58,046 nucleotides of DNA from Alphaproteobacteria bacterium (GTDB lineage: Bacteria; Pseudomonadota; Alphaproteobacteria; M2410): the NCBI GenBank assembly GCA_006226305.1, contig SBHG01000117.1:1-58046 (forward strand), read 5' to 3'. The notes under the pieces were generated by a model, which did not search any database, had not been told where the DNA came from, and was given only the letters and a program-made list of their open reading frames with translations. A program made the position numbers and the translations under genes. Each line of letters opens with the position of its first letter. The first letter of the stretch is position 1. This document shows positions 14,621 through 38,939 of the stretch, one piece after another.

Positions 14621-14747
14621 AATGGGGCGCCGGGACCCCGACTGAGATTGACGGGGGCGACGGCCAAAGGCTAGCTTGCCTCAAAGCCGTGTGGTCCCAA
14701 AGGGTTACCCGGGAAGTTTGACTGATTTGCAGGGGATTTGTCCAGTA

Positions 14748-15770: not shown

Positions 15771-15915
15771 GGCGGGCGCAAGAAAGGGCAAAGATTTTCC
15801 CTTGCAATTTGGAAGGAGCCCGCCTAAAACAGCGCCTCTCGGGCGGCGGCAGCCCTTGTCGCCACCCTCGTGAGGGCCCCAAGGTAATGGGATGCCCTCT
15901 GCCGAAACGGCATCA

Positions 15916-15992
15916 GCACCGGTAGCTCAGCTGGATAGAGTACTTGACTACGAATCAAGGGGTCGGGAGTTCGAATCTTCCCCGGTGCGCCA
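15916..15992 (+). tRNA. tRNA-Arg (anticodon ACG), CCA encoded
   Basis: Hand-folded cloverleaf. The acceptor stem pairs GCACCGG with CCGGTGC. There is a D-arm (GCTC/GAGT), an anticodon stem (CTTGA/TCAAG) with loop CT-ACG-AA, and a T-arm GGGAG-TTCGAAT-CTTCC. The discriminator is G, followed by CCA. Confidence 0.93.
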
Positions 15993-16270
15993 GTTCTTGA
16001 ATAACCTGGATAAATTAACAGCACTGCTCACCGTTTGCATTTGGACGGATCAGGACGAAACAGGATTGGTTCCGATTAGCAACGGAAAGAAGCCAGTTGC
16101 AAGCGCACAATATGTGAAGTGAAACCTTGGTCTCGATTAGCGCCAAGGGAATCTTCTAAAAACCACACTGATCGGTCGTAGAAAGTTGATCTTGTTGTTG
16201 CTGCAACCTCGTAAGTGATGGCTCCAACTGACAGATAGTACAATAAGTCAAAGTTTCGACCATGCATTAT

Positions 16271-16867
16271 TCATTGTGGCCTAACAGAACACCTTTTCTT
16301 TGGAAACCGCATGGCCCAATCTTCCAGCCCGATTTCAGATCCATTGGCGAAGTAAGAGATGGCGTGGTACCACCCGTTAAGCATCAAAAGTTCAATGAGG
16401 GCTTTTTCAGAGAAATGAGTCGTTAGTCTCTCGAAAAGAGCTTCAGGCAGGTGCCCGGTGTCATGCAAACAATCCACCATTTCGATAGTGTCTGCGTCTT
16501 TCGGCGACCAACAGGGTGCAGTATGGTCTAGATAAACAATTGCATGGATCTGGTCGTCTGAGAGTTTTGCAGCTTTCTTGAAAATAGTTACATGCACGCC
16601 CCATTCATATTCGCATCGGCATCTAACACAAACCCTGTTGATTACCAGTTCGCGAGTCCTAACATCGTAGGAGGGGCCACCCCTGTCTGACGCCCGCAAA
16701 AAGTATGCGCCCAACGGCCCCATGGCCTCAGAAAATGGCATGTTTGTTACAAATGTTCGGAAGAGTTTCAGGGGCTCTACATCCCCCTCACCACCCATCA
16801 TTGCTTTAAGTCTGTATTCAACCGATGGATGATAGGGTGGGTCGATCGGCAAAATACGGGCCATCAT
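16271..16867 (-). CDS. Carboxymuconolactone decarboxylase (CMD/AhpD-like) family protein
   Basis: 198-aa ORF with a CMD-type helical core (RELVINRVCVRCRCEYEWGVH). It is paired with an HxlR-type regulator, which is a common arrangement. Confidence 0.7.
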   Translation of the reverse strand: MMARILPIDPPYHPSVEYRLKAMMGGEGDVEPLKLFRTFVTNMPFSEAMGPLGAYFLRASDRGGPSYDVRTRELVINRVCVRCRCEYEWGVHVTIFKKAAKLSDDQIHAIVYLDHTAPCWSPKDADTIEMVDCLHDTGHLPEALFERLTTHFSEKALIELLMLNGWYHAISYFANGSEIGLEDWAMRFPKKRCSVRPQ

Positions 16868-17004
16868 GATATCCTATTTAGTTGAAGAGTTCCATTGTCG
16901 ATACGGAAATCGTATCATATAGTTTCGTCTATGTCGATACGCAATTCGTAGCAAAATGGGAATTGGATGATTGGCCTCTCATGTGCATAGCAAAAGGGCA
17001 GATT

Positions 17005-17403
17005 TCACCTGGTTTTGAGCTGATCAACCCATTCGTCCGACCAGCGGGACAGTGCTTGCAAGGCCGGTTTCAGTTCTTTGCCTAATGGAGTCAGCTCCCA
17101 GCAGCCTTCCATGTTTTGATGCACTATCTCTGCCTCTTTCAGTTCTTTAAGACGCTTGGAAAGCGTATCCGGTGACATCTGATCGCAACGGGACTGCAGA
17201 TCACGGAAACCAACACACTGATCACGCAACTCCCAGATGATGCGAAGAATCCAGCGACGGGAGAAAAGGCCGAGCGCTGCCATGATCGGCCGGCCGGATA
17301 CCGATCCGTGCACGGACCGTCTCGGTATTGAGGTCGAATTTCCTGCCCTTGAGGATTTAGATCTGTTACTCGCCATAAACCATCTCGACTTCCGATACGG
17401 CAT
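17005..17403 (-). CDS. HxlR-family winged-helix transcriptional regulator (start uncertain)
   Basis: The segment LFSRRWILRIIWELRDQCVGFRDLQSRCDQMSPDTLSKRLKELKEAEIV is a typical HxlR core. Alternative starts lie at 17376 and 17283. Confidence 0.75.
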   Translation of the reverse strand: MPYRKSRWFMASNRSKSSRAGNSTSIPRRSVHGSVSGRPIMAALGLFSRRWILRIIWELRDQCVGFRDLQSRCDQMSPDTLSKRLKELKEAEIVHQNMEGCWELTPLGKELKPALQALSRWSDEWVDQLKTR

Positions 17404-17536
17404 TCGTATCAGGCTTCAATCTTCATGGCAATTGGGATTGTGAGCCAGAGTCGCCGGTGCCGGTCCGAGTCGGTACACTTTGTGAACTATTCCGGTAAGG
17501 CCGACTTCGTCTATCTCCCTTGGTCATTGAAAACCA

Positions 17537-17752
17537 ATGGAGACAAAAATGACGACTTCAAACATTCAAATTGAAATGACGGATCGCAAGAACGGCTTTC
17601 GGTCATTCATCGAAAAACTCAAGGTTCTTGCGGAAAATCTCGATCTGCAAACCGACGATATCATCTTTGCAGAGCTCAATCGCAATCGACAGAAAATAGC
17701 GTCGATGGAAAGCCGCATTAAGGAACTGGAGGAGCGGATCAGCAAAAGCTGA
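17537..17752 (+). CDS. Small hypothetical coiled-coil protein (71 aa)
   Basis: The ORF lies 37 nt upstream of the MMPL gene on the same strand. It has a heptad-like C-terminus (IASMESRIKELEERISKS). I recognise no family. Confidence 0.35.
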   Translation: METKMTTSNIQIEMTDRKNGFRSFIEKLKVLAENLDLQTDDIIFAELNRNRQKIASMESRIKELEERISKS

Positions 17753-17789
17753 TCCTGCCCTCCGGGCCAGAATTTTCCGGAGACTAATC

Positions 17790-20159
17790 ATGTTTAAGAC
17801 AGAAAATGCCTTTGAACGGCGCATCGTTGAGCCGCTCTCTCGAGCCGTGACAAACAGTAAAGCTCTTATCGCAATTTTCACAATTGCGATGGTTGTTGTG
17901 TCAGTAATCGGATTGGGATCACTTCAAATTTCGACAAACTATCGGGCCTTTTTTGGCCCCGGCAATCAAGACTTGGCGGATTTTGAGGAATTTGAGGCTA
18001 CATACTCACGCAATGACAATTTTCTCTTTGCATTGCAGGCGGTGGGAGAGCCAGTAGCCTCAAAGCGCACACTGACGGCGCTTCATGAGCTCACCCAGGC
18101 CGCATGGCATATCCCGTCGGCCTTGCGGGTTGATTCACTCACGAATTTTCAAAACACAACCGCGATCGAAGATGATCTGGTTGTTCAGGATCTGTTTGCC
18201 GATCCGAGGACAATGACGTCTGATGAGATTGACTGGGGTCTTCAAACGGCTCTCGACGAACCTCTTTTGCGCGACAAACTGATTTCCCGTGATGCATCAA
18301 CCGTTGGTGCAAATATCACATTGCAGTATTCAGGTGATGATTTGAGCGAGGTCTCTGAAGCAACCGCCGCTGCTCGCGAGATCAAACAAAATATCGAAGA
18401 AAAATACCCTGGCATTCGGGTGGCGCTAACGGGCGTGTCAGCTCTCAACAACGCCTTCGCGGAATCGACGATTCAGGATGCGGTGACCTTGTTCCCGCTC
18501 ATGTTTATCGTCCTGACGATTGTTATATGGTTCGTGGTTCGCAGTGTTGCGGGCACGATCGCTTCTCTGACGATCGTCACACTCTCAACGCTTGGGGCCA
18601 TGGGGTTTGCAGGATTCGCAGGCATTGCCATTTCTCCGTTCTCGGGGAGTGCGCCCGTGGTCATTTTGACCCTTGCCTTGGCGGACTGTATGCACATTTT
18701 CATCTCTGCCAAATCGCACATCGGTACTGGGTCAGGAAAAGTCACGGCGGTTCGCCACGCCTATCAAGAAAATTTCTTGCCGGTGACAATAACAAGCCTG
18801 ACCACCATAATCGGTTTTCTGGCACTCAATTTCTCCGATGCGCCACCTTTCAATGACTTGGGCAATATTGTTGCTGCAGGAATCTTCCTCGCATGGCTGC
18901 TTTCGCTGACGCTCTTCCCGGTTTTGTTGATCGTTATGCCTATGGGCGCGCCTAAGACGAGGTTGTTCGATCGATTGATGGCAAAGAAATTGGATCTGTC
19001 CTTGGTCGCCATTGGTCGATTCTATAAACCGATCATTGTAATCGGAGGCGTGGCTCTGCTGTTCCTCGGCGTTAACATTCGCAACATTGAACTCAATGAT
19101 CCTTGGGTCGATTATTTTGACGAAAAGGTTGAGTTCCGTGTCGATACCGAATTCGTCATGGACAATCTTACCGGACTCTATCTGGTGGAGTTCTCAATCG
19201 ATGCTGCGGAAGTTGGCGGGGTAAATCACCCAGAGTATCTGGAACTGCTGGACCGCTTTTCAACCTGGTTGCGGGCGAGACCTGATGTCTCCCATGTGCA
19301 GTCTTATTCAGACACTATGAAGCGGATCAACCGCACAATGCACGGCGATGACAATGGTTTTTACCGGATTCCCGATAGCAGTGACGAGGCCTCTCAGTAT
19401 CTCTTGCTCTACGAAATGTCGTTGCCTTATGGCCTCGATATGAACGATCGGATCAGCATAGATCGCACCGCCTCACGGCTGACGGTCACTCTTCCAGAGA
19501 TTTCGACCCAGGGCGTTCGCGATTTCGTATCGCAATCTCAGGTCTGGCTCGACCGAGAAGAGGTTCAGGTCTCAACAGTTGTAACCGGCGCACCGGTACT
19601 GTTTGCCCGAATTTCTGAGCGGAACATCAACGATATGTTTTCCGGAAACCTGGTCGCGGTTCTCTTGATTGCCCTGACCATTGCCCTGGCGCTTTGGAAC
19701 TTCAGACTGGGTATGATGAGTTTGATCCCCAATGTCATCCCGATAATTGCAACCTTCGGCATCTGGGCCTCGCTTGTCGGTGAAGTGGGTATGGCCGCCG
19801 CAACGGTCTCCGCCACGTCGCTTGGCATTATTGTCGACAACACGGTCCACCTACTTCTGAAATATCAGAAGGCCCGCAAAAGCTTCGGGCTGGAGGGATT
19901 TGGCGCGGTTGAGTACGCGCTCAAACATGTGGGTCAAGCGGTGATTGTCAATACGATCATTTTGATTGCTGGATTTGGCGTTTTAGCTCTTTCCACATTC
20001 CGTGTGACCGGCCAGATGGGGTCGCTGACGGCTCTGGTAATTGGGGTAGCCTTTGTGGTCGACCTCATCCTGCTGCCTGCGATCCTGCTCTATTTCGCAA
20101 ACCGTAAAATCAATTCCAAGGAAGGAGAACCAAACCATGCGAAACCACAAATGGCATAA
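17790..20159 (+). CDS. MMPL/RND-superfamily exporter
   Basis: 789-aa ORF with two repeated halves. Each half has a large extracytoplasmic loop followed by about 5-6 TM helices. Length and layout are typical of HpnN/MMPL-type transporters. Confidence 0.85.
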   Translation: MFKTENAFERRIVEPLSRAVTNSKALIAIFTIAMVVVSVIGLGSLQISTNYRAFFGPGNQDLADFEEFEATYSRNDNFLFALQAVGEPVASKRTLTALHELTQAAWHIPSALRVDSLTNFQNTTAIEDDLVVQDLFADPRTMTSDEIDWGLQTALDEPLLRDKLISRDASTVGANITLQYSGDDLSEVSEATAAAREIKQNIEEKYPGIRVALTGVSALNNAFAESTIQDAVTLFPLMFIVLTIVIWFVVRSVAGTIASLTIVTLSTLGAMGFAGFAGIAISPFSGSAPVVILTLALADCMHIFISAKSHIGTGSGKVTAVRHAYQENFLPVTITSLTTIIGFLALNFSDAPPFNDLGNIVAAGIFLAWLLSLTLFPVLLIVMPMGAPKTRLFDRLMAKKLDLSLVAIGRFYKPIIVIGGVALLFLGVNIRNIELNDPWVDYFDEKVEFRVDTEFVMDNLTGLYLVEFSIDAAEVGGVNHPEYLELLDRFSTWLRARPDVSHVQSYSDTMKRINRTMHGDDNGFYRIPDSSDEASQYLLLYEMSLPYGLDMNDRISIDRTASRLTVTLPEISTQGVRDFVSQSQVWLDREEVQVSTVVTGAPVLFARISERNINDMFSGNLVAVLLIALTIALALWNFRLGMMSLIPNVIPIIATFGIWASLVGEVGMAAATVSATSLGIIVDNTVHLLLKYQKARKSFGLEGFGAVEYALKHVGQAVIVNTIILIAGFGVLALSTFRVTGQMGSLTALVIGVAFVVDLILLPAILLYFANRKINSKEGEPNHAKPQMA

Positions 20160-20964
20160 GTCAATTTTAACAACATCGGCAGCGCTTTCTGTCATCCTCT
20201 TCAGCATCTCTGCAAAAGCTGGATCTGAAAGCGAATTTGACACTTCGCAAATCTCAGGCTTTGAGATTGCCGCAAAATCCGATCGAAGTGATCGGGGTTT
20301 CGGAAGCAGTGAGGTTGAAGTTCGCATGATCCTCAAAAATGCGGCTGGTAAGGAAACCGAGCGTCGACTGTTATTGTCCACTTACGAAGTCCCAAGCGAA
20401 GAGATTGGTGACAAGACGCTCGTCAAATTCACAGAGCCGAAGGACATCAGGGACACAGCATTGCTGTCCTTTGCTCATATCCTGGAACCCGACCATCAGT
20501 GGTTGTTTTTGCCCTCTGTCAAGCGGGTGAAACGAATCTCGACTGCCAACAAGTCCGGCCCCTTCGTTGGCAGTGAGTTTTCCTTCGAAGATATGACTGG
20601 ACAGGAGCTTAACAAGTATGACTACAAGCAACTGGAAAGCGCCGCTTGTGGAGAGTTTCAGTGCTTTCGACTCGAGCGGACACCGCGATATGAAGGCTCA
20701 GCATACTCCAGCCAGATTGCCTGGGTCGACAGTGAGCACTATCAGATACGCAAGGTGGAGTATTTCGACCGGAAGGGAGACCCGCTTAAGGTTCTCAGGT
20801 ACGAGGACTTCAAATTGTACCATGGAAAGTTTTGGCGACCTCATTCCATGAAGATGGAAAACCTGCAAACCGGTAAGTCGACCGAGTTAGTTTTCGATCA
20901 ATTCAATTTTGATCGCGGTTTGGATGAGAAAGACTTTACCAAAAGCAGTTTGGCGCAGTCATGA
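20137..20964 (+). CDS. LolA-like outer-membrane lipoprotein-sorting family protein (secreted)
   Basis: The ATG at 20137 is preceded by GGAGAA. It has a signal peptide (SAALSVILFSISAKAGS). The segment LLSFAHILEPDHQWLFLPSVKRVKRISTANKSGPFVGSEFSFEDM matches my memory of LolA_like proteins encoded beside MMPL exporters. It overlaps the MMPL 3' end by 23 nt. Confidence 0.7.
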   Translation: MRNHKWHKSILTTSAALSVILFSISAKAGSESEFDTSQISGFEIAAKSDRSDRGFGSSEVEVRMILKNAAGKETERRLLLSTYEVPSEEIGDKTLVKFTEPKDIRDTALLSFAHILEPDHQWLFLPSVKRVKRISTANKSGPFVGSEFSFEDMTGQELNKYDYKQLESAACGEFQCFRLERTPRYEGSAYSSQIAWVDSEHYQIRKVEYFDRKGDPLKVLRYEDFKLYHGKFWRPHSMKMENLQTGKSTELVFDQFNFDRGLDEKDFTKSSLAQS

Positions 20965-22217
20965 TCACGCCAGAGGGCCGACAGCAGGCTGAAATAGGCA
21001 AGGAGCGGTGGTGGAGGTTTGCAATTCCTTTCGCCGCCGCCTCCACTCTTCTCATGCTCATGACAGAACCGGTTATTAGCAACGAGTTGGAGCTTGGAGG
21101 GTCGATCAGTTTGGAATATCGGCACTTTCCGCATCGTGCGCAATGGCAAGGCCAGGACAACAAAACCTTTACGACCTTGATCTTCGAGCCCGAAATGAAT
21201 TGGGAGAGGTCTGATTGGCGTTTTTTCGCGATGCCGTCAGTTCGATCGAAGCTCAAACCTGAATCAACATCTGAGGTGGAGATTTCAGAGCTCTATTTCA
21301 AATGGTCGGGCGACCAGACATATGTTCAGGCAGGGATTATTAAGATTTTTTGGGGTGTGGCAGAAAGCCGGCATCTTGTCGATGTGATCAATCAATGGGA
21401 CATGAGCGCGGACATCGATGGCGAAGATAAGATAGGTCAAGCTGCCCTCGTGATTTCACGGGCGACAAACATTGGTAATTTTGACTTTCTCTATCTACCT
21501 GTCTTCAGAGATCGGAAATTTCCGACTCAACAAGAAAGATTGCGTCCATCTATTAGCATTCGTCCCTCAATAGCTGTCTACGACGGACAGTATGAAAACG
21601 ATTGGAGAAACGACTTTGCTATTCGATATGCCGGCTACTTTGGCAGTTGGGATGTTGGGCTTCACTATTTCAACGGTTTGGGCCGTGATCCCAGACTGAT
21701 CCCGATTGAAGAAGGGGTGGCTCTTGCCCCAACCTACGTGAAGTTGAGGCAAATGGGCATAGACCTTCAATATACCGGTGACAAAACGTTGTTAAAACTT
21801 GAGGGCGTTTGGCGAAACGAAAACGGTCAGGAAAATGTCGCTCTTGTTACAGGTCTTGAGCATACATTGTTTGGTATTGGTGGCGGGTCCACTGATATCG
21901 GGCTTGTTATCGAGTATCTCTATGATGGTCGGCGTGAAGATGGCATTGATGTTCCAATCGAGCCCCTGGACAATGATCTGTTTTTCGGAACACGTTTTGC
22001 GGTAAACGATGTCCAGGACACCGCACTGCTTGTTGGGTTTATGAAGGACCTGTCAAACAGCTCCTTGATCGGTGCATTCGAGTTTGAACGCCGCATTGGG
22101 TCGCGTTGGAAACTGGAGATCGAAGGACGTTGGTTTGACGACGTCTCTGACGCTGATCCTCTCACGGTTTACCAAGATGATAGTAATATCACGACGAGAT
22201 TGGCGTGGTATTTTTGA
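20961..22217 (+). CDS. Putative outer-membrane beta-barrel protein
   Basis: 418-aa ORF with an ATGA overlap with the previous gene. It has a hydrophobic N-terminal segment, alternating amphipathic strands rich in Y/G/D, and ends in RLAWYF (a terminal Phe typical of OMPs). Confidence 0.55.
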   Translation: MITPEGRQQAEIGKERWWRFAIPFAAASTLLMLMTEPVISNELELGGSISLEYRHFPHRAQWQGQDNKTFTTLIFEPEMNWERSDWRFFAMPSVRSKLKPESTSEVEISELYFKWSGDQTYVQAGIIKIFWGVAESRHLVDVINQWDMSADIDGEDKIGQAALVISRATNIGNFDFLYLPVFRDRKFPTQQERLRPSISIRPSIAVYDGQYENDWRNDFAIRYAGYFGSWDVGLHYFNGLGRDPRLIPIEEGVALAPTYVKLRQMGIDLQYTGDKTLLKLEGVWRNENGQENVALVTGLEHTLFGIGGGSTDIGLVIEYLYDGRREDGIDVPIEPLDNDLFFGTRFAVNDVQDTALLVGFMKDLSNSSLIGAFEFERRIGSRWKLEIEGRWFDDVSDADPLTVYQDDSNITTRLAWYF

Positions 22218-22238
22218 TGAGTGGATCGCTTTAGCTGC

Positions 22239-22964
22239 TCAAGCAGGTAGCTCGAAGGGGTTTTCTTCTTGAGTAACCAATGCCAGAAGTAACCATCTAT
22301 CTATGGTGTTCATGAGATCAGGAGTACCGCTCAGGTAGATAATGTCGTCTTCAATAGCTGATTTCAGATCGCGTCGACCAATCCATACCTCAGCGAAGGG
22401 CTGAACTTCAGACGACACATAAAGGTCGACATCAAACCCGGGGTCCTTCTGACACAGGTCTACGCCGGATTCGTCAACCACCACCCACCAGGCTCGCATT
22501 TCGGCCGGGGCATCTTCAAACTCAAAATTCAAAACGGTTCTCGGCTTGGTAAAATAGGCGGAATCAATGCGCCGCCGCAGGTCCCACATCAGAACCCCGG
22601 CATCCCATTCGTGTTTTTCAAGCGCGTCCTTGACCCACTCTTTACCCCATTGCCCAAGTGAATAGATGATGGGGCCCAGGCTCATGCCGGCTTCGGTCAG
22701 GTGGTATGCAGAACCTTGTGCCTCATTTGCCGACTCTTTTGCGACAACGTTCCAGTCTTCAAGTTGTTTCAGCCGTTTTGAAAGCAGCGCGCGCGACATG
22801 AGTGGCACGCCGCGGTGAATCTCATTGAAATGATGGCTGCCGGAAATGATTTCTCGCAGGATAAGCAAGGTCCAGCGGGTTGAGACAATCTCGGCAGCTT
22901 TCGCCACCGGACAGAATTGTCCGTACTTAATATCGTCCGACATCGGATGTTCGGTTTCCGTCAT
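22239..22964 (-). CDS. HxlR-type wHTH regulator with a ~130-aa C-terminal extension of unknown function
   Basis: The N-terminus reads CPVAKAAEIVSTRWTLLILREIISGSHHFNEIHRGVPLMSRALLSKRLKQLEDWNVV. It is convergent with the barrel gene. Confidence 0.75.
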   Translation of the reverse strand: MTETEHPMSDDIKYGQFCPVAKAAEIVSTRWTLLILREIISGSHHFNEIHRGVPLMSRALLSKRLKQLEDWNVVAKESANEAQGSAYHLTEAGMSLGPIIYSLGQWGKEWVKDALEKHEWDAGVLMWDLRRRIDSAYFTKPRTVLNFEFEDAPAEMRAWWVVVDESGVDLCQKDPGFDVDLYVSSEVQPFAEVWIGRRDLKSAIEDDIIYLSGTPDLMNTIDRWLLLALVTQEENPFELPA

Positions 22965-23147
22965 AATGATTGAAAATAGGCGCTAATCAGGTCGCTGTGA
23001 AGGGCTAGAAGACCGAAATGTGATCTGTGTTGGTTGTGCGAAACGCGCTCGTTCGAAGAGGTGCGGGTACAATATGTGAACTAGTCCGAGAGGCGATCAT
23101 CTGTTCAAAAGGAGCAAGGTCATGGACGAGCGAGAGAGAAGAAGCAA

Positions 23148-23885
23148 ATGGAGAGCCCGGTGAGTCAGAATTTGAGTGTGGAAGGCGATGTGACGGCGAG
23201 TGAGCTAATAGCCCCTCCATGGCTGACGATCGGCCTTCCGGAGCTTGGTGGCAAGAGAAGCTTTTGGCGGAGGACAATTGGTATTTCTGTTCTTGGATCC
23301 CTGCCACTGCTCGCCTTGTCAGAAAAAATCGCAACGGCCGCTTTGAGGACCTGCGAGATGATAGGTCCACTTATATCTGATCTGTTGCCGAAATTTCTGA
23401 TTGACGCCGTGGGGAGGATAAACACTGTGATGGATCAAATCCTGTTTAACAAATTTGGCGCAGGTGAGGCCGAGCAGGTTGTTTTCTGGCTTTATGTCGC
23501 CTTTGGCCTTGTGCCGGTTTTGTTTTCCTTAGCGACGCTCTTTTGCCAATCTCAGAGCATCGGTGAACGATTTAACCGCAATGTTGGCCGGGATGCGCAA
23601 GAAGCTCAATGGGATGTACAAAAGGCAACCCAACTCAAAAATGCGCGCCTTGGCTGGCGCATCTGGCAATTCATCGTTGTTCTAATTATGTGCCAGCATA
23701 TTGCACTTTACATAGTGCTGCAGTGGCCGGTCGCCACGACAGGGGCGTTGCTTGTCGGGCTTGGCGCATCGGGATTGCTGGCAGCTTCGCGGTCGCTGGA
23801 CGTCGCGCCGCTGGTTGACAAGTTTTTGGACCAGATCTTTGAAGAGCGCGACCGAAGCTTGCCGAACGGTCATCGGCCAATCTGA
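23148..23885 (+). CDS. Hypothetical membrane protein
   Basis: 245-aa ORF with about 4 hydrophobic segments. I recognise no family. It is the last ORF before the tRNA-fragment repeat. Confidence 0.4.
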   Translation: MESPVSQNLSVEGDVTASELIAPPWLTIGLPELGGKRSFWRRTIGISVLGSLPLLALSEKIATAALRTCEMIGPLISDLLPKFLIDAVGRINTVMDQILFNKFGAGEAEQVVFWLYVAFGLVPVLFSLATLFCQSQSIGERFNRNVGRDAQEAQWDVQKATQLKNARLGWRIWQFIVVLIMCQHIALYIVLQWPVATTGALLVGLGASGLLAASRSLDVAPLVDKFLDQIFEERDRSLPNGHRPI

Positions 23886-24174
23886 AAGACGCGTGGCGGA
23901 TCTCTATTGGGTTCTGGGAGCAATAGTCCTGTATGTTGCGGAGGAGGGCACTAGGTTCGGCACGCCCCCGACAAAAATCTCTTCTTTGCAGTCGAAATTG
24001 TCTTTCGCTCCGCGATTATAACAGTTTTATAACAGCGTGAATCCAAATCGGTCCTTACAGGCCCAAATGAAATCGGTGATCGGGCGGTAGAAAACCCATA
24101 TAAAGCAACGGCATGTTTGAATTTGTCCGGCACTATCCAAACCTCTCCAACCCCATACGGAGCCCGTGCCCTTA

Positions 24175-24220
24175 ACTACGAATCAAGGGGTCGGGAGTTC
24201 GAATCTTCCCCGGTGCGCCA
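24175..24220 (+). repeat. Direct repeat: perfect 46-nt copy of the tRNA-Arg 3' part (att-like site)
   Basis: ACTACGAATCAAGGGGTCGGGAGTTCGAATCTTCCCCGGTGCGCCA is identical to 15947-15992. It extends to 50 nt with one mismatch. There is no matching tRNA 5' half upstream. Confidence 0.95.
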
Positions 24221-24691
24221 GCTTTTCTTTTCGATGATTTTTTGACAGCCCTCAGCGTGAACCGCATTGAGTAGGGGCTGGACTAGGTTGTCTTGGCTGA
24301 GCCGATGGAAACCTGAGCTCAATCGGAGTGCGAACAACCATTGATGCGGCAAGCACGGCTTGCAGACACTGAAGTGATTTATGGAGCGCGTGGTTCGACC
24401 AGTAAAATCATACGACTTGCAAAGTAAATGATTCGAATAACTAAAAGAAATATGTGGCAGAATTGCCAAAAACTGCGCAAAAATAGACAAAATGCAGCGC
24501 TTTTCTTTAGTTTTGCAGGGGTAACCTTTCCATTTTCGAAATAATGTTCTATCACCTGTGACTGGCATGAGGGTCCGGTGAGCGTGGCCTTCCGGGGGTA
24601 TCCGCGACTTGATTTGGTTTCGTGGCAGCGCTGAATGGGAATTTGGCAAGACCCTCGTTTGACAAGACTAAAGCCAAACGGAGAGTTTCTA

Positions 24692-27301
24692 ATGTCCAAA
24701 TTTATGACGGGCGTTTCGTCCATTGCGATGCTAAGCGCGATGGCCGTGCCTGCTTCTGCCGCAATTGATGAAATTGTGGTCACATCCACCAAACGCGCTG
24801 CGAGCGCGCAAAGCATCCCAATCGCGGTTTCGGCTTTCGATGAGCAAGCCCTCGAAGAGCTGGATGTGGATGTTTTTACGGACTACTTAATGCAGATGCC
24901 GGGCGTCACGGCCGGCGGTTCGGGTCCTGGGCAAAACACGATCTATGTACGTGGTCTCGCCTCGACAACACCCAACTTGACGACGGCCGGTGTCGCCGGT
25001 CTCGCGCCAAATGTGGCGCTCTATCTTGACGAGCAGCCCATATCGCAGCCGGGCCGTAATTTGGATGTTTACGCCGCGGATCTGGAGCGGATTGAGGTGT
25101 TGGCAGGTCCCCAGGGCACACTTTATGGCGCGAGCTCCCAGGCAGGCACGATCCGCCTCATTACCAACAAACCAGTCATCGGTGAATTTGCAGCCAAGGC
25201 GAGCTTTGGTTCTGCTTTCACCAAAGATGGTGAGATGAGCAACAAAGTCGAAGGCATGATCAATATTCCTGTCTCTGATCGATTTGCTATGCGCGCGGTT
25301 GTTTATGTCGATAACCAGGGCGGCTACATTGACAACGTGCACGGGACCCTTGATGCGTCCCAATCAGCCCGGTTCCGTCCGGAAGGGACAGTACGTGCCA
25401 ACGGTGTCCCGGTTTCAGCGCAGCGCGCAGGTTTTCAGTCAACGGCCAATCTTGCAGGCGTGACGTTCCTGGAGGCCGACAATTCTGCGCTTGTTGAAGA
25501 AGATTTCAACGATACGACCTATTCAGGTTTCCGCCTCTCCGGTCTCTTTGACGTCTATGAAGATTGGTCCGTGTTGGTGGCGCATAGCGAACAGGACATC
25601 GACGCCGATGGGGTCTTTTTTGAAGACCCCGAACTCGGCGATCTTGAGGTTCAGCGCTATGAAAATGATTCCATGGAGGACGGATACAGCAACACGGCCT
25701 GGACGGTGGATGGGCGAATAGGGCAGCTTGAGGTTCTCTACACCGGGGCCTATACGGATCGTGAGACGGATCAAAACGTTGACTACACGGACTACTTGTT
25801 CGTCGGACAATATCTGCCCTATTATATTTGTGACGGGACAGTAACTTATCCCGCGGGTGATCCGACGGGTACGTGCCAGGCGCCAAATCTTTATGTGAAA
25901 TCCCACACGGAAAGCGAATTTCTCACCCACGAATTCCGTATCAATACGCCGCAAGAAAACCGCGTGAAGGCCACTGTAGGTGTTTTCTATTCGGACTCGG
26001 AAGTGCGCGAACGCAATGATTATGCCTACCCGGGGTCGATCTTCGTTGATCTGTGGGGCCAGATCGGTTTTTCCGACAACTACCCCTTCATGACCGGCTA
26101 TACATCTGATGATGGGCCCTTCCCACCAGGTGTTATCTTCCGAAACGATGTAAAACGCACCGACGAACAGATCGGATACTTCGGAGAAGTGACATTCGAC
26201 GTTGTGCCGAACGTCTTCTCGATTACGCTGGGAGCCCGCAACTACGATATTGAAGTCGATTTTGAAGGAAGCGCTAACTCGTCCTTCTGCAATGGCTTCC
26301 AGCCTGATGCGAACGCTTATGGCACCGACATCAGTGACCTTTACAATGGGGACGGCGAATATACCTTCCATGGGTCGTGCGACACCGGTCGTCATATCAC
26401 TTACACAGAGGGCATGAGCGAAGCCGACATCCTGTTAGCGGATCCGCTTCTCAGCGCGAGTCAGGTCACCCAGATTTACAATGCGTTGAGCGCGCCGGAC
26501 AAGGCCAAGGCCGATGGAACGATCTATAAGGCAACCGCCACATGGACGCCATCAGAGGACCTGCTCTTTTACGCTACCTATTCGGAGGGCTTCCGCCCCG
26601 GGTTGTTGAACCGACCAGGGGGTGCCGCCGGGCCTGGCGGATACACGGTTCCCTTCGTTCTCGATACCGATGATATCAAAAACTACGAATTGGGGTGGAA
26701 AACGGATCTCTTCGATCAAACCCTGCGTTTCAACGGAAACGTTTTCTTTGTTGAGATCGAACGGTTGCAGACCACGATTTTCGATCCTTCAATTGTCAAC
26801 CTTTTCTTCTCGGACAATGCCGCCGATGCCGAAATTCGGGGCATGGAAGGGGAAGTAACCTGGGCGCCGAGTTCTGTTCCAGGACTTACAGTGGCTGGCG
26901 CATTTTCGGTCCTCGACACCGAAATCACCAAAGTTCTGACGCCTACAGGTGACGTGATTAAGGGTGAACCGCTTGCCTTCGCACCGGAATTCCAAGGCAA
27001 TATTCGCCTGCGATACGAATGGATGCTGGAAAATGGTTATGGCGCTTATGTCATGCCTCAGATTGTTTATTCGGACTCTTCTTACAGTGACATCATTGAG
27101 ATCAACAAGGCGGAGATCGATAGCTGGACAACTGTTGGCGTCCGTGCGGGTGTCGTTGCTGACAATTGGTCGGCTGAGCTTTATGTGGACAATCTCACTG
27201 ATGAGCGCGCAGAGATTAACAACAATTTTGTGTTCGATCGCGAACGCGTTACGGTCATTCGTCCGCTAACGGTAGGTATGCGTTTCTCGGTTGAATATTA
27301 G
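24692..27301 (+). CDS. TonB-dependent receptor
   Basis: The ATG at 24692 is preceded by GGAGA. It has a signal peptide (SAMAVPASA) and a plug domain (EIVVTSTKRAASAQSIPIAVSAF...IEVLAGPQGTLYGASSQAGTIRL). A long beta-barrel follows, ending in MRFSVEY. Confidence 0.92.
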   Translation: MSKFMTGVSSIAMLSAMAVPASAAIDEIVVTSTKRAASAQSIPIAVSAFDEQALEELDVDVFTDYLMQMPGVTAGGSGPGQNTIYVRGLASTTPNLTTAGVAGLAPNVALYLDEQPISQPGRNLDVYAADLERIEVLAGPQGTLYGASSQAGTIRLITNKPVIGEFAAKASFGSAFTKDGEMSNKVEGMINIPVSDRFAMRAVVYVDNQGGYIDNVHGTLDASQSARFRPEGTVRANGVPVSAQRAGFQSTANLAGVTFLEADNSALVEEDFNDTTYSGFRLSGLFDVYEDWSVLVAHSEQDIDADGVFFEDPELGDLEVQRYENDSMEDGYSNTAWTVDGRIGQLEVLYTGAYTDRETDQNVDYTDYLFVGQYLPYYICDGTVTYPAGDPTGTCQAPNLYVKSHTESEFLTHEFRINTPQENRVKATVGVFYSDSEVRERNDYAYPGSIFVDLWGQIGFSDNYPFMTGYTSDDGPFPPGVIFRNDVKRTDEQIGYFGEVTFDVVPNVFSITLGARNYDIEVDFEGSANSSFCNGFQPDANAYGTDISDLYNGDGEYTFHGSCDTGRHITYTEGMSEADILLADPLLSASQVTQIYNALSAPDKAKADGTIYKATATWTPSEDLLFYATYSEGFRPGLLNRPGGAAGPGGYTVPFVLDTDDIKNYELGWKTDLFDQTLRFNGNVFFVEIERLQTTIFDPSIVNLFFSDNAADAEIRGMEGEVTWAPSSVPGLTVAGAFSVLDTEITKVLTPTGDVIKGEPLAFAPEFQGNIRLRYEWMLENGYGAYVMPQIVYSDSSYSDIIEINKAEIDSWTTVGVRAGVVADNWSAELYVDNLTDERAEINNNFVFDRERVTVIRPLTVGMRFSVEY

Positions 27302-27379
27302 GGGTACCTTGAAAAAGCAAACCAACATTAGCCCACCACAGACAGAAGCGCCCCTCGTTGGGCGCTTCTGCGTGAGGGT

Positions 27380-29383
27380 ATGTTCGTGAGCGATCAAAAA
27401 GCACTGAAGCCGGAAGATCTCGCAGGCATTCGTCTTGAGATGAAGAAGCGGAATTTTAGTCAAGCAGAGACGCGGATCAACGCACTGCTGGAAATTGAAC
27501 CTCAAAATCCGGATATCTTGTATATGCAAGCGGTGACATTGCGTTATCTCAAACGCTTTGGTGCCGCATTGCATGTTCTTGATGAGGTACAGTGCATAAC
27601 GCCCTTTAGTGGGCGTATTCATCAGGAAAGAGGGCACCTATACCGGGATCAGGGACGAAGTCGGGAGGCCATCGACGCCTATCGGTCGGCGGTCCAAATC
27701 AATCCCGCTCTTAAGGCAAGTTGGCGGGGGCTCGCCAAGCTTTCCGACCAGGTGTTCGATAAAGAAACCGCGGCCATGGCCAATGCCCAAGCTGAACGCT
27801 TAGAGAGCTTGCCTCAAGAGCTCTTCGCGGTCGAAAATCTCATATACGAAAATCAGGTTTTAAAGGCTGAGCAGATCTGCCGCACCTATTTGCAGCGCAA
27901 CCCGAAGGACACAGAAGGCATGCGCTTGCTGGCCGACATTGGAGTTCGGCTCGGCGTTCTGGATGATGCGGAATTTCTTCTAGAGAGCGCAGTGGGGCTG
28001 TCACCAAAGAACGTTCAGTTGCGCATTGACTATATTCAGGTTCTTCGCCGACGGCAGAACTTCGCAAGGGCCCTCAGCCAAGCGCGTGATCTTTATACGT
28101 CCGACAAAGACAACCCCGTCTTTCAGTCAATTTTTGCCATTGAACTGATGCAGTCGGGCGACTACGAGGCGGCCTTTCCTCTCTTTGACGCCATCCTGGC
28201 AAAACGGCCAAATGATCCGCAAACTCTTGTCTCGCGGGGTCACGCGTTAAAGACGGTGGGCAGACAGGACGAGGCCATTAGATCGTATCAGACGGCCTGT
28301 GAGGTGGCGCCGGAACTTGGTGAGGCCTGGCACGCGCTCGCAAACCTGAAGACCTATGAATTTATGCAGCTTGAGATTGATCGTATGGAGCGATTGAAGG
28401 CATCGGGCACTTTAACTCCAAAGGATGAGATCGCGATCGATTTCGCGCTTGGCAAAGCCTATGAGGATCGAGGTGATTTCGACCGCTCATTCATGTCCTA
28501 CAGCGCGGGCAACGACCTGAAGCGACAACAGTCCAATTATCGCTCAGATAAAATGGCCGAGGAGTTTGCCAGGCAGAAGGTCGCTTGCACGCCAGGGCTT
28601 TTCGAAAAGCAAGCTGGCCATGGATGTCAGGCCAGGGATCCGATTTTTATCGTCGGCCTGCCGCGCGCAGGGTCTACTTTGCTGGAACAAATTCTCGCCT
28701 CCCATAGCCAGGTGGATGGAACCCTGGAGCTGCCGAATATTTTGTCGTTGGCCCATAAATTGAGAGGTCGGGAGCGGGCGTCCGGCAAGCACCTTTATCC
28801 TGAGAGCCTTCACGACCTAAGAGCGGAAGAGCTTCTGGCATTTGGACAAGCCTATATAGAAGAGACTCAGATCCACCGGCAAGGCGCGCCGCGCTTTACC
28901 GATAAGATGCCGAACAATTTCCGCCACATTGGTCTTATTCATCTCATTTTGCCCAACGCCAAGATTATCGATGCCCGCCGTGAACCGATGGCCTGTTGCT
29001 TTAGCGGCTTTAAGCAACTTTTTGCCGAAGGGCAGGAGTTCACATACGGACTGAAGGAAGTCGGCAGCTACTACCGCGAATATATAGAACTTATGCGGCA
29101 TTTCGATGACGTGCTGCCAGGCAAAATATTGCGCGTGATCCACGAAGATGTGGTGGCGGACCTTGAAGGTCAGGTGCGGCGCCTTCTTGAGTTTTGCGAC
29201 CTGCCTTTTGAGCAAACCTGTCTTGATTTCCACAAAACCGATCGCAGCGTGCGTACCGCAAGCTCCGAACAAGTGCGTCAGCCGGTGAGCAGCACCGGCC
29301 TGGAGCAGTGGAAGAATTTTGAAAAATATTTGGACCCCCTGCGCGCCGCGCTGGGACCCGCCCAATCGGAGTATCGGCAATGA
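27380..29383 (+). CDS. TPR-repeat / sulfotransferase fusion protein
   Basis: 667-aa ORF. The N-terminal ~400 aa are TPR repeats. The C-terminal part has a PAPS 5'-phosphosulfate-binding loop (GLPRAGSTLLEQIL) and a sulfotransferase core (RFTDKMPNNF...RREPMACCFS...TASSEQVRQP). Confidence 0.85.
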   Translation: MFVSDQKALKPEDLAGIRLEMKKRNFSQAETRINALLEIEPQNPDILYMQAVTLRYLKRFGAALHVLDEVQCITPFSGRIHQERGHLYRDQGRSREAIDAYRSAVQINPALKASWRGLAKLSDQVFDKETAAMANAQAERLESLPQELFAVENLIYENQVLKAEQICRTYLQRNPKDTEGMRLLADIGVRLGVLDDAEFLLESAVGLSPKNVQLRIDYIQVLRRRQNFARALSQARDLYTSDKDNPVFQSIFAIELMQSGDYEAAFPLFDAILAKRPNDPQTLVSRGHALKTVGRQDEAIRSYQTACEVAPELGEAWHALANLKTYEFMQLEIDRMERLKASGTLTPKDEIAIDFALGKAYEDRGDFDRSFMSYSAGNDLKRQQSNYRSDKMAEEFARQKVACTPGLFEKQAGHGCQARDPIFIVGLPRAGSTLLEQILASHSQVDGTLELPNILSLAHKLRGRERASGKHLYPESLHDLRAEELLAFGQAYIEETQIHRQGAPRFTDKMPNNFRHIGLIHLILPNAKIIDARREPMACCFSGFKQLFAEGQEFTYGLKEVGSYYREYIELMRHFDDVLPGKILRVIHEDVVADLEGQVRRLLEFCDLPFEQTCLDFHKTDRSVRTASSEQVRQPVSSTGLEQWKNFEKYLDPLRAALGPAQSEYRQ

Positions 29384-30993
29384 AACAAGAAGACGAATTC
29401 GACCTGCCCGAACATCACGCGCCAGAGGAGCTGGCCTATGATACTGATTTTACCACGGGGCAGGACAACATTCAGTTTTGGGGGCTAGACCTGCACAACC
29501 CGGTTTTTTTTGTTGGCGCTTTGTTGATTGCCGGTTTTGTCGTGAGTTCGCTGGCCTTTCCGGATGCGGCGCGAGAGTTGTTTCAGGCGGCGAAAACCGG
29601 GGCTCTCAACAATTTTGATTGGCTCTTTGTTATCACTACAAACATCGTTTTTCTTTTTTGTATCGGGATCGGGTTTTCGAGGTTTGGCCGTATTCGGATC
29701 GGCGGCGCGGAAGCAGAACCGGAGTTTAGTACGATTTCGTGGATCTCCATGCTGTTTTCGGCCGGTGTAGGAATTGGCATGGTGTTTTACGGCGCAGCTG
29801 AACCGATGGCCTATTACACGGGCTGGTCGGGAACACCGCTCAATGCGGAACCTCTCACCCCTGAAGCAAGACAGCTTGCCTTTAGCGCGACCATATTCCA
29901 TTGGGGGATTACGCCTTGGGCAATTTATGCCGTGATTGGTCTGGCGCTCGCCTATTTCACTTTTAACCGTGGTCTGCCCTTGACCATCCGGTCGATTTTC
30001 TACCCCTTGTTTGGTGAGCGCATCTGGGGATGGCCGGGACATGTAATAGACCTGCTTGCCGTTGTCGCGACACTTTTTGGGCTGGCGACTTCTCTTGGCC
30101 TGGGGGCCAAGCAGGCGGCCAGCGGCTTGCACTTCCTTTTTGGTGCCGATCCTGGCCTCCAGACGCAAGTAGTTCTGATTATCGGAATTACTAGCCTGGC
30201 GATCTTTTCCGTTATCAGAGGACTCGACGGTGGTGTGAAACTCCTGAGCAATATTAATATTGTGCTGGCGATCATCGTTTTGATCTTTGTCGTTCTTGCC
30301 GGTCCGACACTACTCATTCTAAAGAGTTATGGCACAAATCTGCTTGCCTATTTTGAGGACGTAACGCGTCTGAGCAATTGGATGGGCCGGGAAGACAAAA
30401 GCTGGTTTCATGGGTGGACGATCTTTTATTGGGCCTGGTGGATTTCCTGGTCCCCATTTGTAGGCATGTTTATCGCACGGGTTTCAAAAGGGCGGACCAT
30501 TCGGGAGTTTCTTTTGGCCGTCTTGGTCCTACCAACCATTGTTGCGGTTGTTTGGTTTTCATCTTTTGGTACAACGGCAATTGATCAGGTGCAAAATGGG
30601 GTGGGCGCTCTGCCGAGCGGCATCAAAGATGTCTCTCTTGTGCTGTTCCAAATGCTTGAGCAATTGCCACTGGCCCAAGTGTCCTCAATGGTGGCGATCC
30701 TTTTGCTCATTGTCTTTTTTGTGACATCATCAGATTCCGGGTCACTCGTGATTGATAGTATTACTGCTGGCGGTAAGCTCCATGCGCCCGTGCCGCAGCG
30801 TATTTTTTGGGCGACTATGGAGGGAATGGTCGCGATTGTTCTGCTCGTGGGCGGTGGCGCAACGGCACTTTCCTCGCTTCAAGCCGGGGCCATCGCAGTC
30901 GGGCTGCCTTTCTCATTGGTCCTGATCGCAAGTTGTATTAGTTTGCTCCGTGGTTTAATGACAGAACCGAGTGTCAAAAGGCCAAAAGACTGA
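29380..30993 (+). CDS. BCCT-family (betaine/carnitine/choline) transporter
   Basis: 537-aa ORF with 12 TM segments and the BCCT signature WTIFYWAWWISWSPFVGMFIARVSKGRTIREF. It shares an ATGA overlap with the sulfotransferase stop. Confidence 0.92.
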   Translation: MKQEDEFDLPEHHAPEELAYDTDFTTGQDNIQFWGLDLHNPVFFVGALLIAGFVVSSLAFPDAARELFQAAKTGALNNFDWLFVITTNIVFLFCIGIGFSRFGRIRIGGAEAEPEFSTISWISMLFSAGVGIGMVFYGAAEPMAYYTGWSGTPLNAEPLTPEARQLAFSATIFHWGITPWAIYAVIGLALAYFTFNRGLPLTIRSIFYPLFGERIWGWPGHVIDLLAVVATLFGLATSLGLGAKQAASGLHFLFGADPGLQTQVVLIIGITSLAIFSVIRGLDGGVKLLSNINIVLAIIVLIFVVLAGPTLLILKSYGTNLLAYFEDVTRLSNWMGREDKSWFHGWTIFYWAWWISWSPFVGMFIARVSKGRTIREFLLAVLVLPTIVAVVWFSSFGTTAIDQVQNGVGALPSGIKDVSLVLFQMLEQLPLAQVSSMVAILLLIVFFVTSSDSGSLVIDSITAGGKLHAPVPQRIFWATMEGMVAIVLLVGGGATALSSLQAGAIAVGLPFSLVLIASCISLLRGLMTEPSVKRPKD

Positions 30994-31014
30994 AACCCTT
31001 GGAACAGGCCCGCC

Positions 31015-31497
31015 ATGGAAACTCACTCAGAGACCGCCCTGATTGCGCTCCGTCAGATCCTCAGGGCCACGGAAATGAACTCCCGGGCCCTGGCAAAGGC
31101 GGCAAATCTATCGCCATCTCAATTGATCTTGCTTCAGGTTCTATCCAGAAGTGATGGCATGACCCCTGGAGCGATCGCCAAACGCTTGTCGATCAGTCAA
31201 GCCACTGTCACAGCCATGATCGACAAACTCTCTGGTCGGGGCCTCGTCGAGCGTCAGCGCGACAACGCTGACAAACGTCGGGTGATCATCCGAATTACAG
31301 GCGACGGCGAAGCCACCATGGCGACGGCACCAGATCAATTGCAGGAACATTTCGTTAAGCGATTTGAGGCCTTGCCGGAGTGGGAGCGGTCATTCTTGAT
31401 TGCCGCGCTCCAGCGCACGGCTTCATTGCTCGACGCAGAAGAAATCGATGCCGCGCCAGTCCTCGATATCGGCGGCATTACCTCTCCGACAACATGA
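31015..31497 (+). CDS. MarR-family transcriptional regulator
   Basis: 160-aa ORF with a wHTH region (LSPSQLILLQVLSRSDGMTPGAIAKRLSISQATVTAMIDKLSGRGLVERQRDNADKRRV). Confidence 0.88.
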   Translation: METHSETALIALRQILRATEMNSRALAKAANLSPSQLILLQVLSRSDGMTPGAIAKRLSISQATVTAMIDKLSGRGLVERQRDNADKRRVIIRITGDGEATMATAPDQLQEHFVKRFEALPEWERSFLIAALQRTASLLDAEEIDAAPVLDIGGITSPTT

Positions 31498-31697
31498 GTG
31501 TCACGCCCCCTCCCCAAAAAAATCTGTCATTTCTGTCAAAACTGTCCGGGTATGGCTTTGGTAACAGAATGGTAACAGCCCGACCGCCAGATGCCCTTCG
31601 GAATACGTCGCATTACATCGCAATTCGACCCTCGGAAGCCCTTCTAGATCCGCGGAAATCCAATCTTTTCCGAGGTTTTCCGCCCGAGTGATCCATA

Positions 31698-31743
31698 ACT
31701 ACGAATCAAGGGGTCGGGAGTTCGAATCTTCCCCGGTGCGCCA
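31698..31743 (+). repeat. Direct repeat: third perfect 46-nt copy of the tRNA-Arg 3' part
   Basis: It is identical to 15947-15992 and 24175-24220. It also shares two extra upstream nt (TA) with the second copy only. Confidence 0.95.
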
Positions 31744-31763
31744 TCGTTTTTCCAAATGACAAG

Positions 31764-31952
31764 AATGGCTACAATGAGCGCTTCAACGGCACTCTACGCA
31801 GAGAGGTCCACTATGCCGAGTGGTTCAGCGCCCTCAAGCAGGCCGACATCGTCATCCAGAAATGGCTCAAACAGTACAATTACGTCCGGCCTCACCAGGC
31901 TCTGGGCATGCGCGCACCGGTCCCTGAGACTCTAGCAAAAACTGGTACATAG
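31764..31952 (+). pseudogene. Remnant of a DDE (rve-type, IS3/IS481-like) transposase C-terminus
   Basis: My own translation gives NGYNERFNGTLRREVHYAEWFSALKQADIVIQKWLKQYNYVRPHQALGMRAPVPETLAKTGT*. This is only the last ~60 aa of a transposase, and it begins ~20 nt after the att-like repeat. Confidence 0.7.
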
Positions 31953-32247
31953 CCTGGAGACTTTACATTCGGTGACCATGGCGATCATGGCAGTGATGCT
32001 TGAGCCGCCGTGGGCGCCATCTCGGCGCGCCCTTGGAGGCTCTTCTTCGCCAGTAATACGTTCAAAGGTAAACCCCGTTTTTTCCTGAATATGAGGGGGT
32101 AAAACCCAAAAATTCGGATTTTGGGGAAATTATGGTCCCTAAAGTCAATTTCTACACCAAAATCCAAACGTTAAGACCCGTTTATTCCAATGTTTTCTAT
32201 CTTAAAACCCAAAAATTCTGTATAATGGTCCAGGAAGGAGAGTCTTA

Positions 32248-33720: not shown

Positions 33721-33930
33721 TAGGCTGAGAAGTTATTTTGATCTTACTCACCCCCGCGGTAAGACTGTTGATGTGCAAAGGGCCTTCAAGAGTCAGACAG
33801 GGCCTAAGACAAAAATGTAAGATCTCAACGCTACATCTAAATTAATGATGCTTTTCATAATTAGATCTGCATCAAAAATTTACGCGTGCCGTATCGAACG
33901 GAAAAGCCGCACAATATGCAGCATGGAAAT

Positions 33931-34029
33931 GCTCGGTGGTTCAGCGCGATCAAGCAGTACAATCACATCCGGCTTCACCAGGCCTTTGGCATGCGTCCGC
34001 CGATCCCTGGGACACTAGCAAAAATTGGA
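33931..34029 (+). pseudogene. Second, internally deleted remnant of the same transposase type
   Basis: ARWFSAIKQYNHIRLHQAFGMRPPIPGTLAKIG aligns with remnant 1 (AEWFSALKQ[..deleted..]YNYVRPHQALGMRAPVPETLAKTG). It has the same orientation and is roughly 80 percent identical at nt level by eye. Confidence 0.6.
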
Positions 34030-34130
34030 AAATTCCAACTTCAAATGGTCCAGGAATCGGGGGCCAGGTTACCTTTGTTGCGGCAACCGACTGTCTAACA
34101 GATGCAGAAAAAAGTGCGGCGGCGGGTGCC

Positions 34131-34490: not shown

Positions 34491-34569
34491 TCACAATTCA
34501 AACTATTTGCCACAGGCCAAACCGGTGCTTTGTTGCAGAAAAACTACGATGATCTCGATGTCGTGCGCC

Positions 34570-35487: not shown

Positions 35488-35588
35488 TCGTGATCATTCT
35501 CCATGAGTGTAGTGATAAATTGTGCGTTTACCACACTAACAATCGGGCATAATGTCAAGCCGCAACATTTCTAGATGGGGAGTACTCA

Positions 35589-38933: not shown

Positions 38934-38939
38934 GGTTCT

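Follow-up and report, generated by a model that had tools for sequence, protein, structure and literature searches.

Cis-mobilizable elements (CIMEs) and their tandem accretion have been defined for the elements related to ICESt1 of Streptococcus thermophilus (Pavlovic 2004; Bellanger 2011; summarised in PMC5704250). Islands in tandem have also been described at the ssrA gene of Dehalococcoides; about half of these are without an integration module and have been discussed as possible CIMEs (McMurdie et al. 2011, PMC3146451). Here we describe two tandem islands, A and B, that are bounded by direct repeats of the 3' end of a tRNA-Arg(ACG) gene on contig SBHG01000117.1. The contig was analysed over its whole length of 58,046 nt, referred to as the window, and belongs to the metagenome-assembled genome of an uncultured freshwater-sediment alphaproteobacterium. 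Between the tRNA gene and approximately 36.09 kb lies a strain-specific stack of integrated elements, 20 kb long, in which A and B appear, from their sequences, to be two different members of one element family of the CIME type.

Islands A and B resemble the ICESt1-related CIMEs in that each is flanked by left and right attachment sites (attL and attR) derived from site-specific integration at the 3' end of a gene, has no genes for integration, excision or transfer, and is part of a tandem stack. They differ in the host, an uncultured alphaproteobacterium, in the target, tRNA-Arg(ACG), and in that no integrative and conjugative element (ICE) or integrative and mobilizable element (IME) accompanies them in the window. 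By the standard account CIMEs originate by decay of an ICE or IME, whereas no remnant of any such module was found in A or B, the sole hint being a 13/14-nt match considered below. With the Dehalococcoides islands the locus shares a row of islands behind a small-RNA gene, direct repeats of the 3' end of that gene and variation between strains. The repeat there is a 20-bp piece of ssrA, and a CcrB-like serine recombinase is found at the attL side (PMC3146451); here it is 46-50 bp of a tRNA gene, and relatives of the locus point to arm-binding tyrosine integrases at the attR side.

The islands of tRNA genes that carry P4-like (arm-binding) tyrosine integrases share with this locus a block of identity from the anticodon loop to the 3' end, an atypical composition, an intact tRNA gene at one end with a displaced fragment at the other, and absence from a close relative. 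The integrase gene that defines such islands is absent from A and B, and none is found beside an attachment site in A, in B or in the adjoining segment C. Williams is said to have classified integration, in 2002, by sublocation within the tRNA gene. Integron cassette arrays likewise consist of units, there promoter-less or small, that are stacked at one site while the integrase is encoded outside the unit. In contrast to integrons, the locus has no IntI, attI or folded attC (no integrase occurs in the window, and Rfam finds only the tRNA), the units are multi-gene islands of 7-8 kb with their own regulators, and the site is a tRNA fragment.

Repeats and extent of the strain-specific block

An earlier note on this DNA had claimed three perfect, same-orientation copies of the 3' 46 nt of the tRNA, the first of them inside the intact gene, and both points were reproduced. 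Exact pattern matching with the 46-mer ACTACGAATCAAGGGGTCGGGAGTTCGAATCTTCCCCGGTGCGCCA gave exactly three matches, all on the + strand and with 0 mismatches, at 15947-15992, 24175-24220 and 31698-31743, compared with 0 matches in 100 shuffles. Copy 1 is the 3' part of an intact tRNA-Arg(ACG) gene at 15916-15992 (+ strand; called by ARAGORN, Rfam tRNA score 62.4 bits) and forms the attL of island A; copy 2 is the attR of island A as well as the attL of island B, and copy 3 is the attR of island B. The repeat extends from the last base of the 5' strand of the anticodon stem through the anticodon loop to CCA. Neither further copies with up to 3 mismatches nor degenerate copies (at least 28/46 identities, either strand) were found in the window. 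The five bases preceding the repeat are ACTTG in the tRNA, CCTTA at copy 2 and CCATA at copy 3. Of the additional TA that copies 2 and 3 had been said to share with each other and not with the tRNA, the final A (G in the tRNA) stands; the rest reduces to this single-base difference, and, with the 4 bases upstream included in the comparison, copy 2 differs from the tRNA at just one position (49 of 50 shared).

The window is represented in sequencing runs of one freshwater-sediment study (X1, X2 and X5), at approximately 50x in X1 and 20x in X2. In X1 the unitig that consists of the exact 46-mer has a word depth of 139.1, which is 3 x ~46 and indicates about three copies per genome; the 46-mer is therefore no dispersed repeat, an alternative that the earlier note had raised. 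All comparisons between runs were made with k=31 contigs, which break at every repeat and are silent on the order of the segments.

A sister strain is present in X5 at about 5-6x and is also a minor component of X2. It is ~98-99% identical to the window over 1-15771 and 36088-53600, and its depth is zero over island A, island B and 31.9-36.09 kb. Since this strain lacks everything from the end of the tRNA to ~36088, the foreign block measures about 20 kb and consists of island A (15993-24174, 8.2 kb), island B (24221-31697, 7.5 kb) and segment C (31744-36088). The extent of 15916-31743 given previously holds for the repeat-bounded islands, but the foreign block continues to ~36.09 kb and includes segment C. 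The locus is polymorphic between the two strains. Segment C is decayed and has no closing repeat; no att-like sequence was found at its right edge, including any fourth, decayed copy of the repeat at 28/46 identities or more. A 19-nt inverted repeat with 16/19 complementary positions (GTTGCAAGCGCACAATATG and CATATTCATCGCTTGCAAC; 16096-16114 and 36041-36059) lies close to the two ends of the 20-kb block, with its left arm ~100 nt and its right arm ~30-50 nt inward from the respective edge, and may be due to chance.

The composition of the block is atypical in relation to the left core. The GC content is 0.50 in island A and 0.53 in island B against 0.57 in the left core, and the GC content at third codon positions (GC3) is 0.55 in A, 0.58 in B and 0.53 in C against 0.65; GC and GC3 of the block are both below the left core, and its GC3 overlaps that of the right core (0.59). 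The low-GC block coincides with the 20-kb strain-specific block. The perfection of the repeats is by itself unremarkable, because the block either arose after the divergence from a strain that is 98-99% identical or has been lost since then.

The shared end module and the integration site in relatives

The right ends of islands A and B are homologous over ~100 nt (~65-70% identity; z = 7.1; 0/300 shuffles reach the score). By local alignment, this module occupies 23960-24056 (+ strand) in A and 31501-31598 (+ strand) in B, where it begins 3 nt past the stop codon of the last cargo gene, a MarR regulator; the distance from the module edge to the cargo is 0-70 nt in both islands. Each module contains a TAACAG-N5-TAACAG pair, located at 24019-24035 (+ strand), 139 nt left of copy 2, and at 31562-31578 (+ strand), 119 nt left of copy 3. 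With up to one mismatch and in either orientation, these are the only two pairs in 58 kb. About 200 nt of non-coding DNA lie left of the repeat in A and B, where relatives hold an integrase gene. Considering this position and the layout seen in relatives, we infer that the TAACAG pairs are arm-type integrase sites. Near the left ends, a single TAACAG(C) at 16016-16021 (+ strand), 24 nt right of the tRNA end, has a counterpart in TGACAG(C) at 24243-24248, 23 nt right of copy 2; these TRACAGC motifs may be the left-end arm site of each island, an assignment that is post hoc and weak. A unique deletion junction shared by A and B ('CACGCCCCC') was considered and dropped, because the boundary is an 8-9-nt match that ends the local alignment. 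Scans of metagenome and genome collections for the TAACAG pair with the core, and for a family-specific 29-mer, gave no matches.

The absence of a recombinase between the repeats, which had been claimed from reading frames, was sustained by profile and six-frame searches. Pfam detected no tyrosine or serine recombinase in any open reading frame (ORF) of the window, and a six-frame Pfam search (E up to 1) of the non-coding DNA beside the repeats detected no signal of an integrase, excisionase or resolvase. An integrase pseudogene was likewise not found by six-frame Pfam search in the gene-poor kilobase at 22940-23960. When five recombinases from related loci were compared with the window by tblastn, only an antisense tRNA fragment was matched. 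Transfer genes were absent from islands A and B in the Pfam search of ORFs and the six-frame search of non-coding DNA, and the remainder of the window contains housekeeping or ordinary accessory genes.

The exact 46-mer was next sought in one genome per species of 185,579 species. It was found at 66 loci, mostly in metagenome-assembled genomes of Parvibaculales, Parvularculales and Caulobacterales; the window's own genome was not among the matches. The relatives are distant (~65% nucleotide identity, and 62-64% protein identity in the flanking genes of the nearest), and the tRNA sequence is identical in at least 66 species. The left flank, comprising a histidine kinase, a gamma-glutamyltranspeptidase, an S58 peptidase and the tRNA-Arg, is syntenic in ~33 related species, and the sequence downstream of the tRNA differs in every relative. 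No empty-site allele was seen among the 66 loci. Most of the matches are intact tRNAs; three (L019, L025 and L030) are partial copies.

Two of these partial copies close repeat-bounded islands, L025 on a complete chromosome with the intact tRNA in L008, and L030 with the start of the island in L042. In both, a gene with the Pfam domains Arm-DNA-bind_3 and Phage_integrase starts left of the partial copy (by 150 nt in L025 and 212 nt in L030) and reads away from it. The repeat that closes the relatives' islands is CTTG plus the 46 nt, identical throughout. Between the integrase and the repeat of L030, TCTCAGCA occurs twice with 11-nt spacing, and the same pair is found in L042 at 67 nt past the core; L025 and L008 show the same layout, a tandem 8-mer pair with 11-nt spacing on both sides of the core, with a motif of their own. 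In L031, a Phage_integrase gene directly follows the intact tRNA. Islands bounded by this repeat of 46-50 nt were seen in genomes of other Parvibaculales and Caulobacterales. Given the varied DNA and the varied recombinases downstream of the tRNA in relatives, tRNA-Arg(ACG) is a busy integration site, at which islands with the same repeat carry a predicted arm-binding tyrosine integrase at their far (attR) end.

Two further observations were made at the tRNA genes of relatives. The island of L008 and L025 belongs to a complete Parvibaculaceae chromosome. Its first genes encode a C-5 cytosine methyltransferase and a NotI-like restriction endonuclease (L008:3573-7492), and its last the arm-binding integrase that adjoins the partial tRNA copy (L025:6083-7243); it is a predicted restriction-modification island at the same attachment site. 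At four other loci (L012:2890-4458(-), L036:1234-2889(-), L016 and L029), a large serine recombinase with the domains Resolvase, Recombinase and Zn_ribbon_recom abuts tRNA-Arg(ACG). These ORFs run antisense into the tRNA, so that their last 12-14 codons are the complement of the tRNA 3' end and the proteins end in …WRTGEDSNSRPLDS or …MAHRGRFELPTP; the attachment site of this recombinase seems to lie inside the 3' end of its own gene.

Contigs of X1, X2 and X5 that matched at 80% likeness revealed further A-like and B-like modules. A 13,761-nt contig, found in X1 and X2 (depth 34 and 16), carries a B-like module that lacks one TAACAG unit through an 11-nt deletion; the depth of this module is close to that of the main strain. 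When the contig is aligned with window 31520-31704, the likeness ends 7 nt into the core (ACTACGA, part of the anticodon loop), at the point where the crossover of a tyrosine integrase would be expected, and the contig could represent a member of the family at another target. A 1,443-nt contig of X5, which occurs in X2 too at the depth of the sister strain, has a B-like arm with three differences and continues with a different 107-nt spacer, the core with one inserted base and the transposase tail of segment C. A 533-nt contig of X5 holds a B-like module that runs into the core, with 6 differences over 31649-31734, and in a second 533-nt contig of the same run an A-like arm is joined to the core by a different spacer, 105 nt long. 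From these sequences, the sister strain very probably has an array of its own with other cargo. The occurrence of further modules with other spacers and other flanks indicates that the module belongs to a living family.

Origin of the integrase-less islands

Serial site-specific integration at the attB site of the tRNA gene had been proposed in the earlier note. Given that the extent of the repeat, the integrase-bearing relatives, the homologous right ends and the island-free sister strain all fit it, we regard accretion by site-specific recombination as highly probable. We further favour, at a rough probability of 0.45 and hence tentatively, that the islands were already without an integrase when they inserted and that the enzyme was supplied in trans by another element. 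The attachment site (attP) of each element would comprise a core of 46-50 bp, which repeats the tRNA sequence unchanged from the anticodon loop to CCA, and flanking arm sites that include the TAACAG-N5-TAACAG pair at a distance of ~120-140 nt on one side. Another element would encode the arm-binding tyrosine integrase that recombines attP with the tRNA gene, and the crossover would fall where the identity block begins on its left. Island B would have inserted first and island A next, into the regenerated tRNA; at each insertion the tRNA would be restored, and the 3' end that it had before would move downstream and remain there as a perfect repeat. In the standard model, the insertion of B displaced copy 3 and that of A displaced copy 2, so that B would be the older island. 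The cores are identical at 46/46 positions beside modules that are ~30% diverged, which argues for two separate recent recombinations with the tRNA and not for an old duplication: unselected repeats that diverged in place would decay together with their neighbours, and the perfect cores are therefore best explained by recent events.

Several observations weigh against supply in trans. An integrase able to act in trans was not found within the 58-kb window. Neither island was found as a unit beside the 46-nt repeat anywhere else by pattern and homologue searches, and the k=31 contigs, which are unable to span 46 nt, showed neither an excised circle nor an empty site nor an allele with a single island. 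In X1 the island depth (41-46) is only slightly under that of the core (46-54), a gap that noise or GC bias would cover. Between the left ends of A and B there is no significant likeness (z = 0.6), and each has at most one TRACAGC motif; since relatives have paired motifs on both arms, the att sites may be incomplete and the islands immobile. Finally, 13 of 14 nt at the edge of the module of A match codons 10-14 of the L025 integrase, which could be the scar of a deleted integrase gene; the z of this match is only 2.6.

Depth was considered separately as a sign of excision and was rejected as such. In X1 the depths are 46-54 for core contigs, 40.9 for island A, 46.3 for island B and 49.5 for the right flank, and the shortfall of 10-20% in island A, although it hints that some cells lack the island, does not go beyond noise, GC bias or the spread of the core contigs. 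In X2 the corresponding depths are 18-21, 15.9, 14.9 and 18.1, and the island deficit follows from the sister strain, which shares the core words and not the islands. The depths are compatible with one molecule.

The strongest rival is decay in place, in which each island, like those of L025 and L030, arrived with an integrase gene at the right end and integrated by itself; a clean deletion later removed this gene and left an immobile remnant. Decay is the standard account of the origin of CIMEs (PMC5704250), which also counts against supply in trans, and it would agree with the transposase tails and DctM remnant of the visibly decayed segment C next door, with the incomplete look of the left arms and with the possible trace of an integrase 5' end in A. 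It requires, however, that a whole gene of ~1.15 kb was deleted twice, independently and without a detectable remnant, that both deletions ended near the same point of the module, and that both occurred before any substitution in 92 nt of unselected repeat and no earlier, or not much earlier, than a divergence of 1-2% from the sister strain allows. Because loss in place needs two clean and similarly placed deletions, supply in trans is favoured over decay, by a margin that is not large, and we consider decay unlikely without setting it aside.

Import of the block as a whole is clearly less probable. In this case the array would have been built, and its integrases lost, in another strain, from which it would have reached this lineage through homologous recombination between conserved flanks, with no site-specific event ever taking place in this genome. 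The sister strain is different throughout the 20 kb, segment C included, and seems to own other modules, which is the pattern of an allelic replacement at a hotspot; the identity of the tRNA in the 66 or more species is also in keeping with it. Import would nevertheless explain only the arrival of the structure and not its origin, the perfect cores beside ~30% diverged modules would still need recent site-specific events somewhere, and no donor with this array was found by the 46-mer scan, pattern scans or exact-protein look-ups. For the flanking S58 peptidase and the Fic protein of segment C, these look-ups returned only the two source runs (SRR8389941 and SRR8389942) and no alternative arrangement.

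That a large serine recombinase, and not a tyrosine integrase, produced the repeats is improbable: such a gene abuts the tRNA 3' end in the four related genomes mentioned above, but these four have no second exact 46-mer, the 46-50-nt repeat goes together with arm-binding tyrosine integrases in the relatives that have it, and tandem arm-type repeats suit the latter enzymes. An assembly artefact, in which islands of different strains or a free circle were chained through the shared 46-mer, might be suspected since the genome is metagenome-assembled and the order left flank-A-B-right flank has no independent check from k=31 contigs that break at repeats, but it is very improbable, given that a repeat of 46-50 nt is shorter than ordinary reads, that A, B and both flanks have similar depths (41, 46 and 50-54 in X1; 16, 15 and 18-21 in X2), that the depth of the 46-mer unitig equals three copies, and that the sole other linear path, left flank-B-A-right flank, is also a tandem array.

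Cargo of the block and significance of the locus

The gene content that had been read from islands A and B agrees with Pfam. Island A encodes a CMD protein (16271-16867, - strand), an HxlR regulator (17005-17403, -), an MMPL protein (17790-20159, +), a LolA_like protein (20053-20964, +), a 418-aa ORF without Pfam match (20961-22217, +) and a second HxlR (22239-22964, -). At its right end lies an orphan 245-aa ORF (23148-23885, +), also without Pfam match, for which no homologue at E <=1e-5 was found among 5.8 billion proteins; it is perhaps no real gene, and the 1.2 kb from HxlR to repeat copy 2 may be non-coding or decayed DNA. The closest homologue of CMD in a homologue search is 67% identical. 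A 22-nt near-palindrome (TGTCGATACGnnAnTCGTATCA) occurs three times in this island, twice between CMD and HxlR (16896-16917 and 16932-16953) and once over the start of HxlR (17390-17411), and these copies look like operators of the HxlR regulator.

Island B encodes a TonB-dependent receptor (24635-27301), a TPR-sulfotransferase (27380-29383), a BCCT transporter (29380-30993) and the MarR regulator (31015-31497), all on the + strand. The same four genes, in the same order and with a MarR that is 78% identical, were found in another organism of the same sample (L070:3028-9838, run X2), where 259 nt separate the end of the cluster from a different tRNA gene, which lies on the opposite strand. MarR homologues of ~60-65% identity occur commonly in genomes of Parvularcula and Hyphococcus; the recurring MarR clusters retrieved by homologue searches stand in other contexts, with no integrase. 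It seems that the cluster is a conserved functional unit, and its predicted products probably serve the uptake and sulfation (or use) of a quaternary-amine-type compound.

In segment C, six-frame Pfam searches placed an rve_3 transposase tail at ~31750-31950 (E 7e-19), which starts less than 10 nt past copy 3, a second, weaker rve_3 tail at 33929-34033, and the C-terminal remnant of a DctM gene at ~34130-34430 (- strand). An intact Fic gene (32248-33720, +; Pfam) lies between the two tails, which are direct and 81% alike (~31813-31950 and 33929-34033), and is followed by LysR (34570-35487, -) and cupin (35589-35939, +) genes; the gene content of segment C draws on Pfam and on Logan gene calls. 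Variants of the rve_3 tail are present at high depth in all three runs, indicating an insertion sequence that is common in the community.

As a phenomenon, such stacking is known from CIMEs and from the Dehalococcoides ssrA islands, and the locus is a clear but ordinary example of it. What is new is a corrected extent for the foreign block, an arm module shared by the two islands, the type of integrase at the site and the polymorphism with the sister strain. The anatomy is of interest in that unrelated cargo is combined with one shared but diverged end module with arm-type repeats, with perfect cores and with no integrase. A bolder possibility is that the islands are no gutted remnants but belong to a lineage made up of cargo and att module (the tRNA-identical core and TAACAG arm sites) that has spread and diverged, never carried an integrase and borrows an arm-binding tyrosine integrase encoded elsewhere; we hold this to be doubtful. 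If it were true, the tRNA-Arg of Parvibaculales-like bacteria would be an integron-like capture site for multi-gene islands. The locus is a clean test case for whether integrase-less islands are mobilized in trans or are merely decayed. For the organism, it means that accessory functions, namely a lipid or solute exporter in island A and a TonB receptor, a sulfotransferase and a betaine-type transporter in island B, have accumulated behind one tRNA gene, and that strains of an uncultured sediment alphaproteobacterium differ in them although the strains are 98-99% identical.

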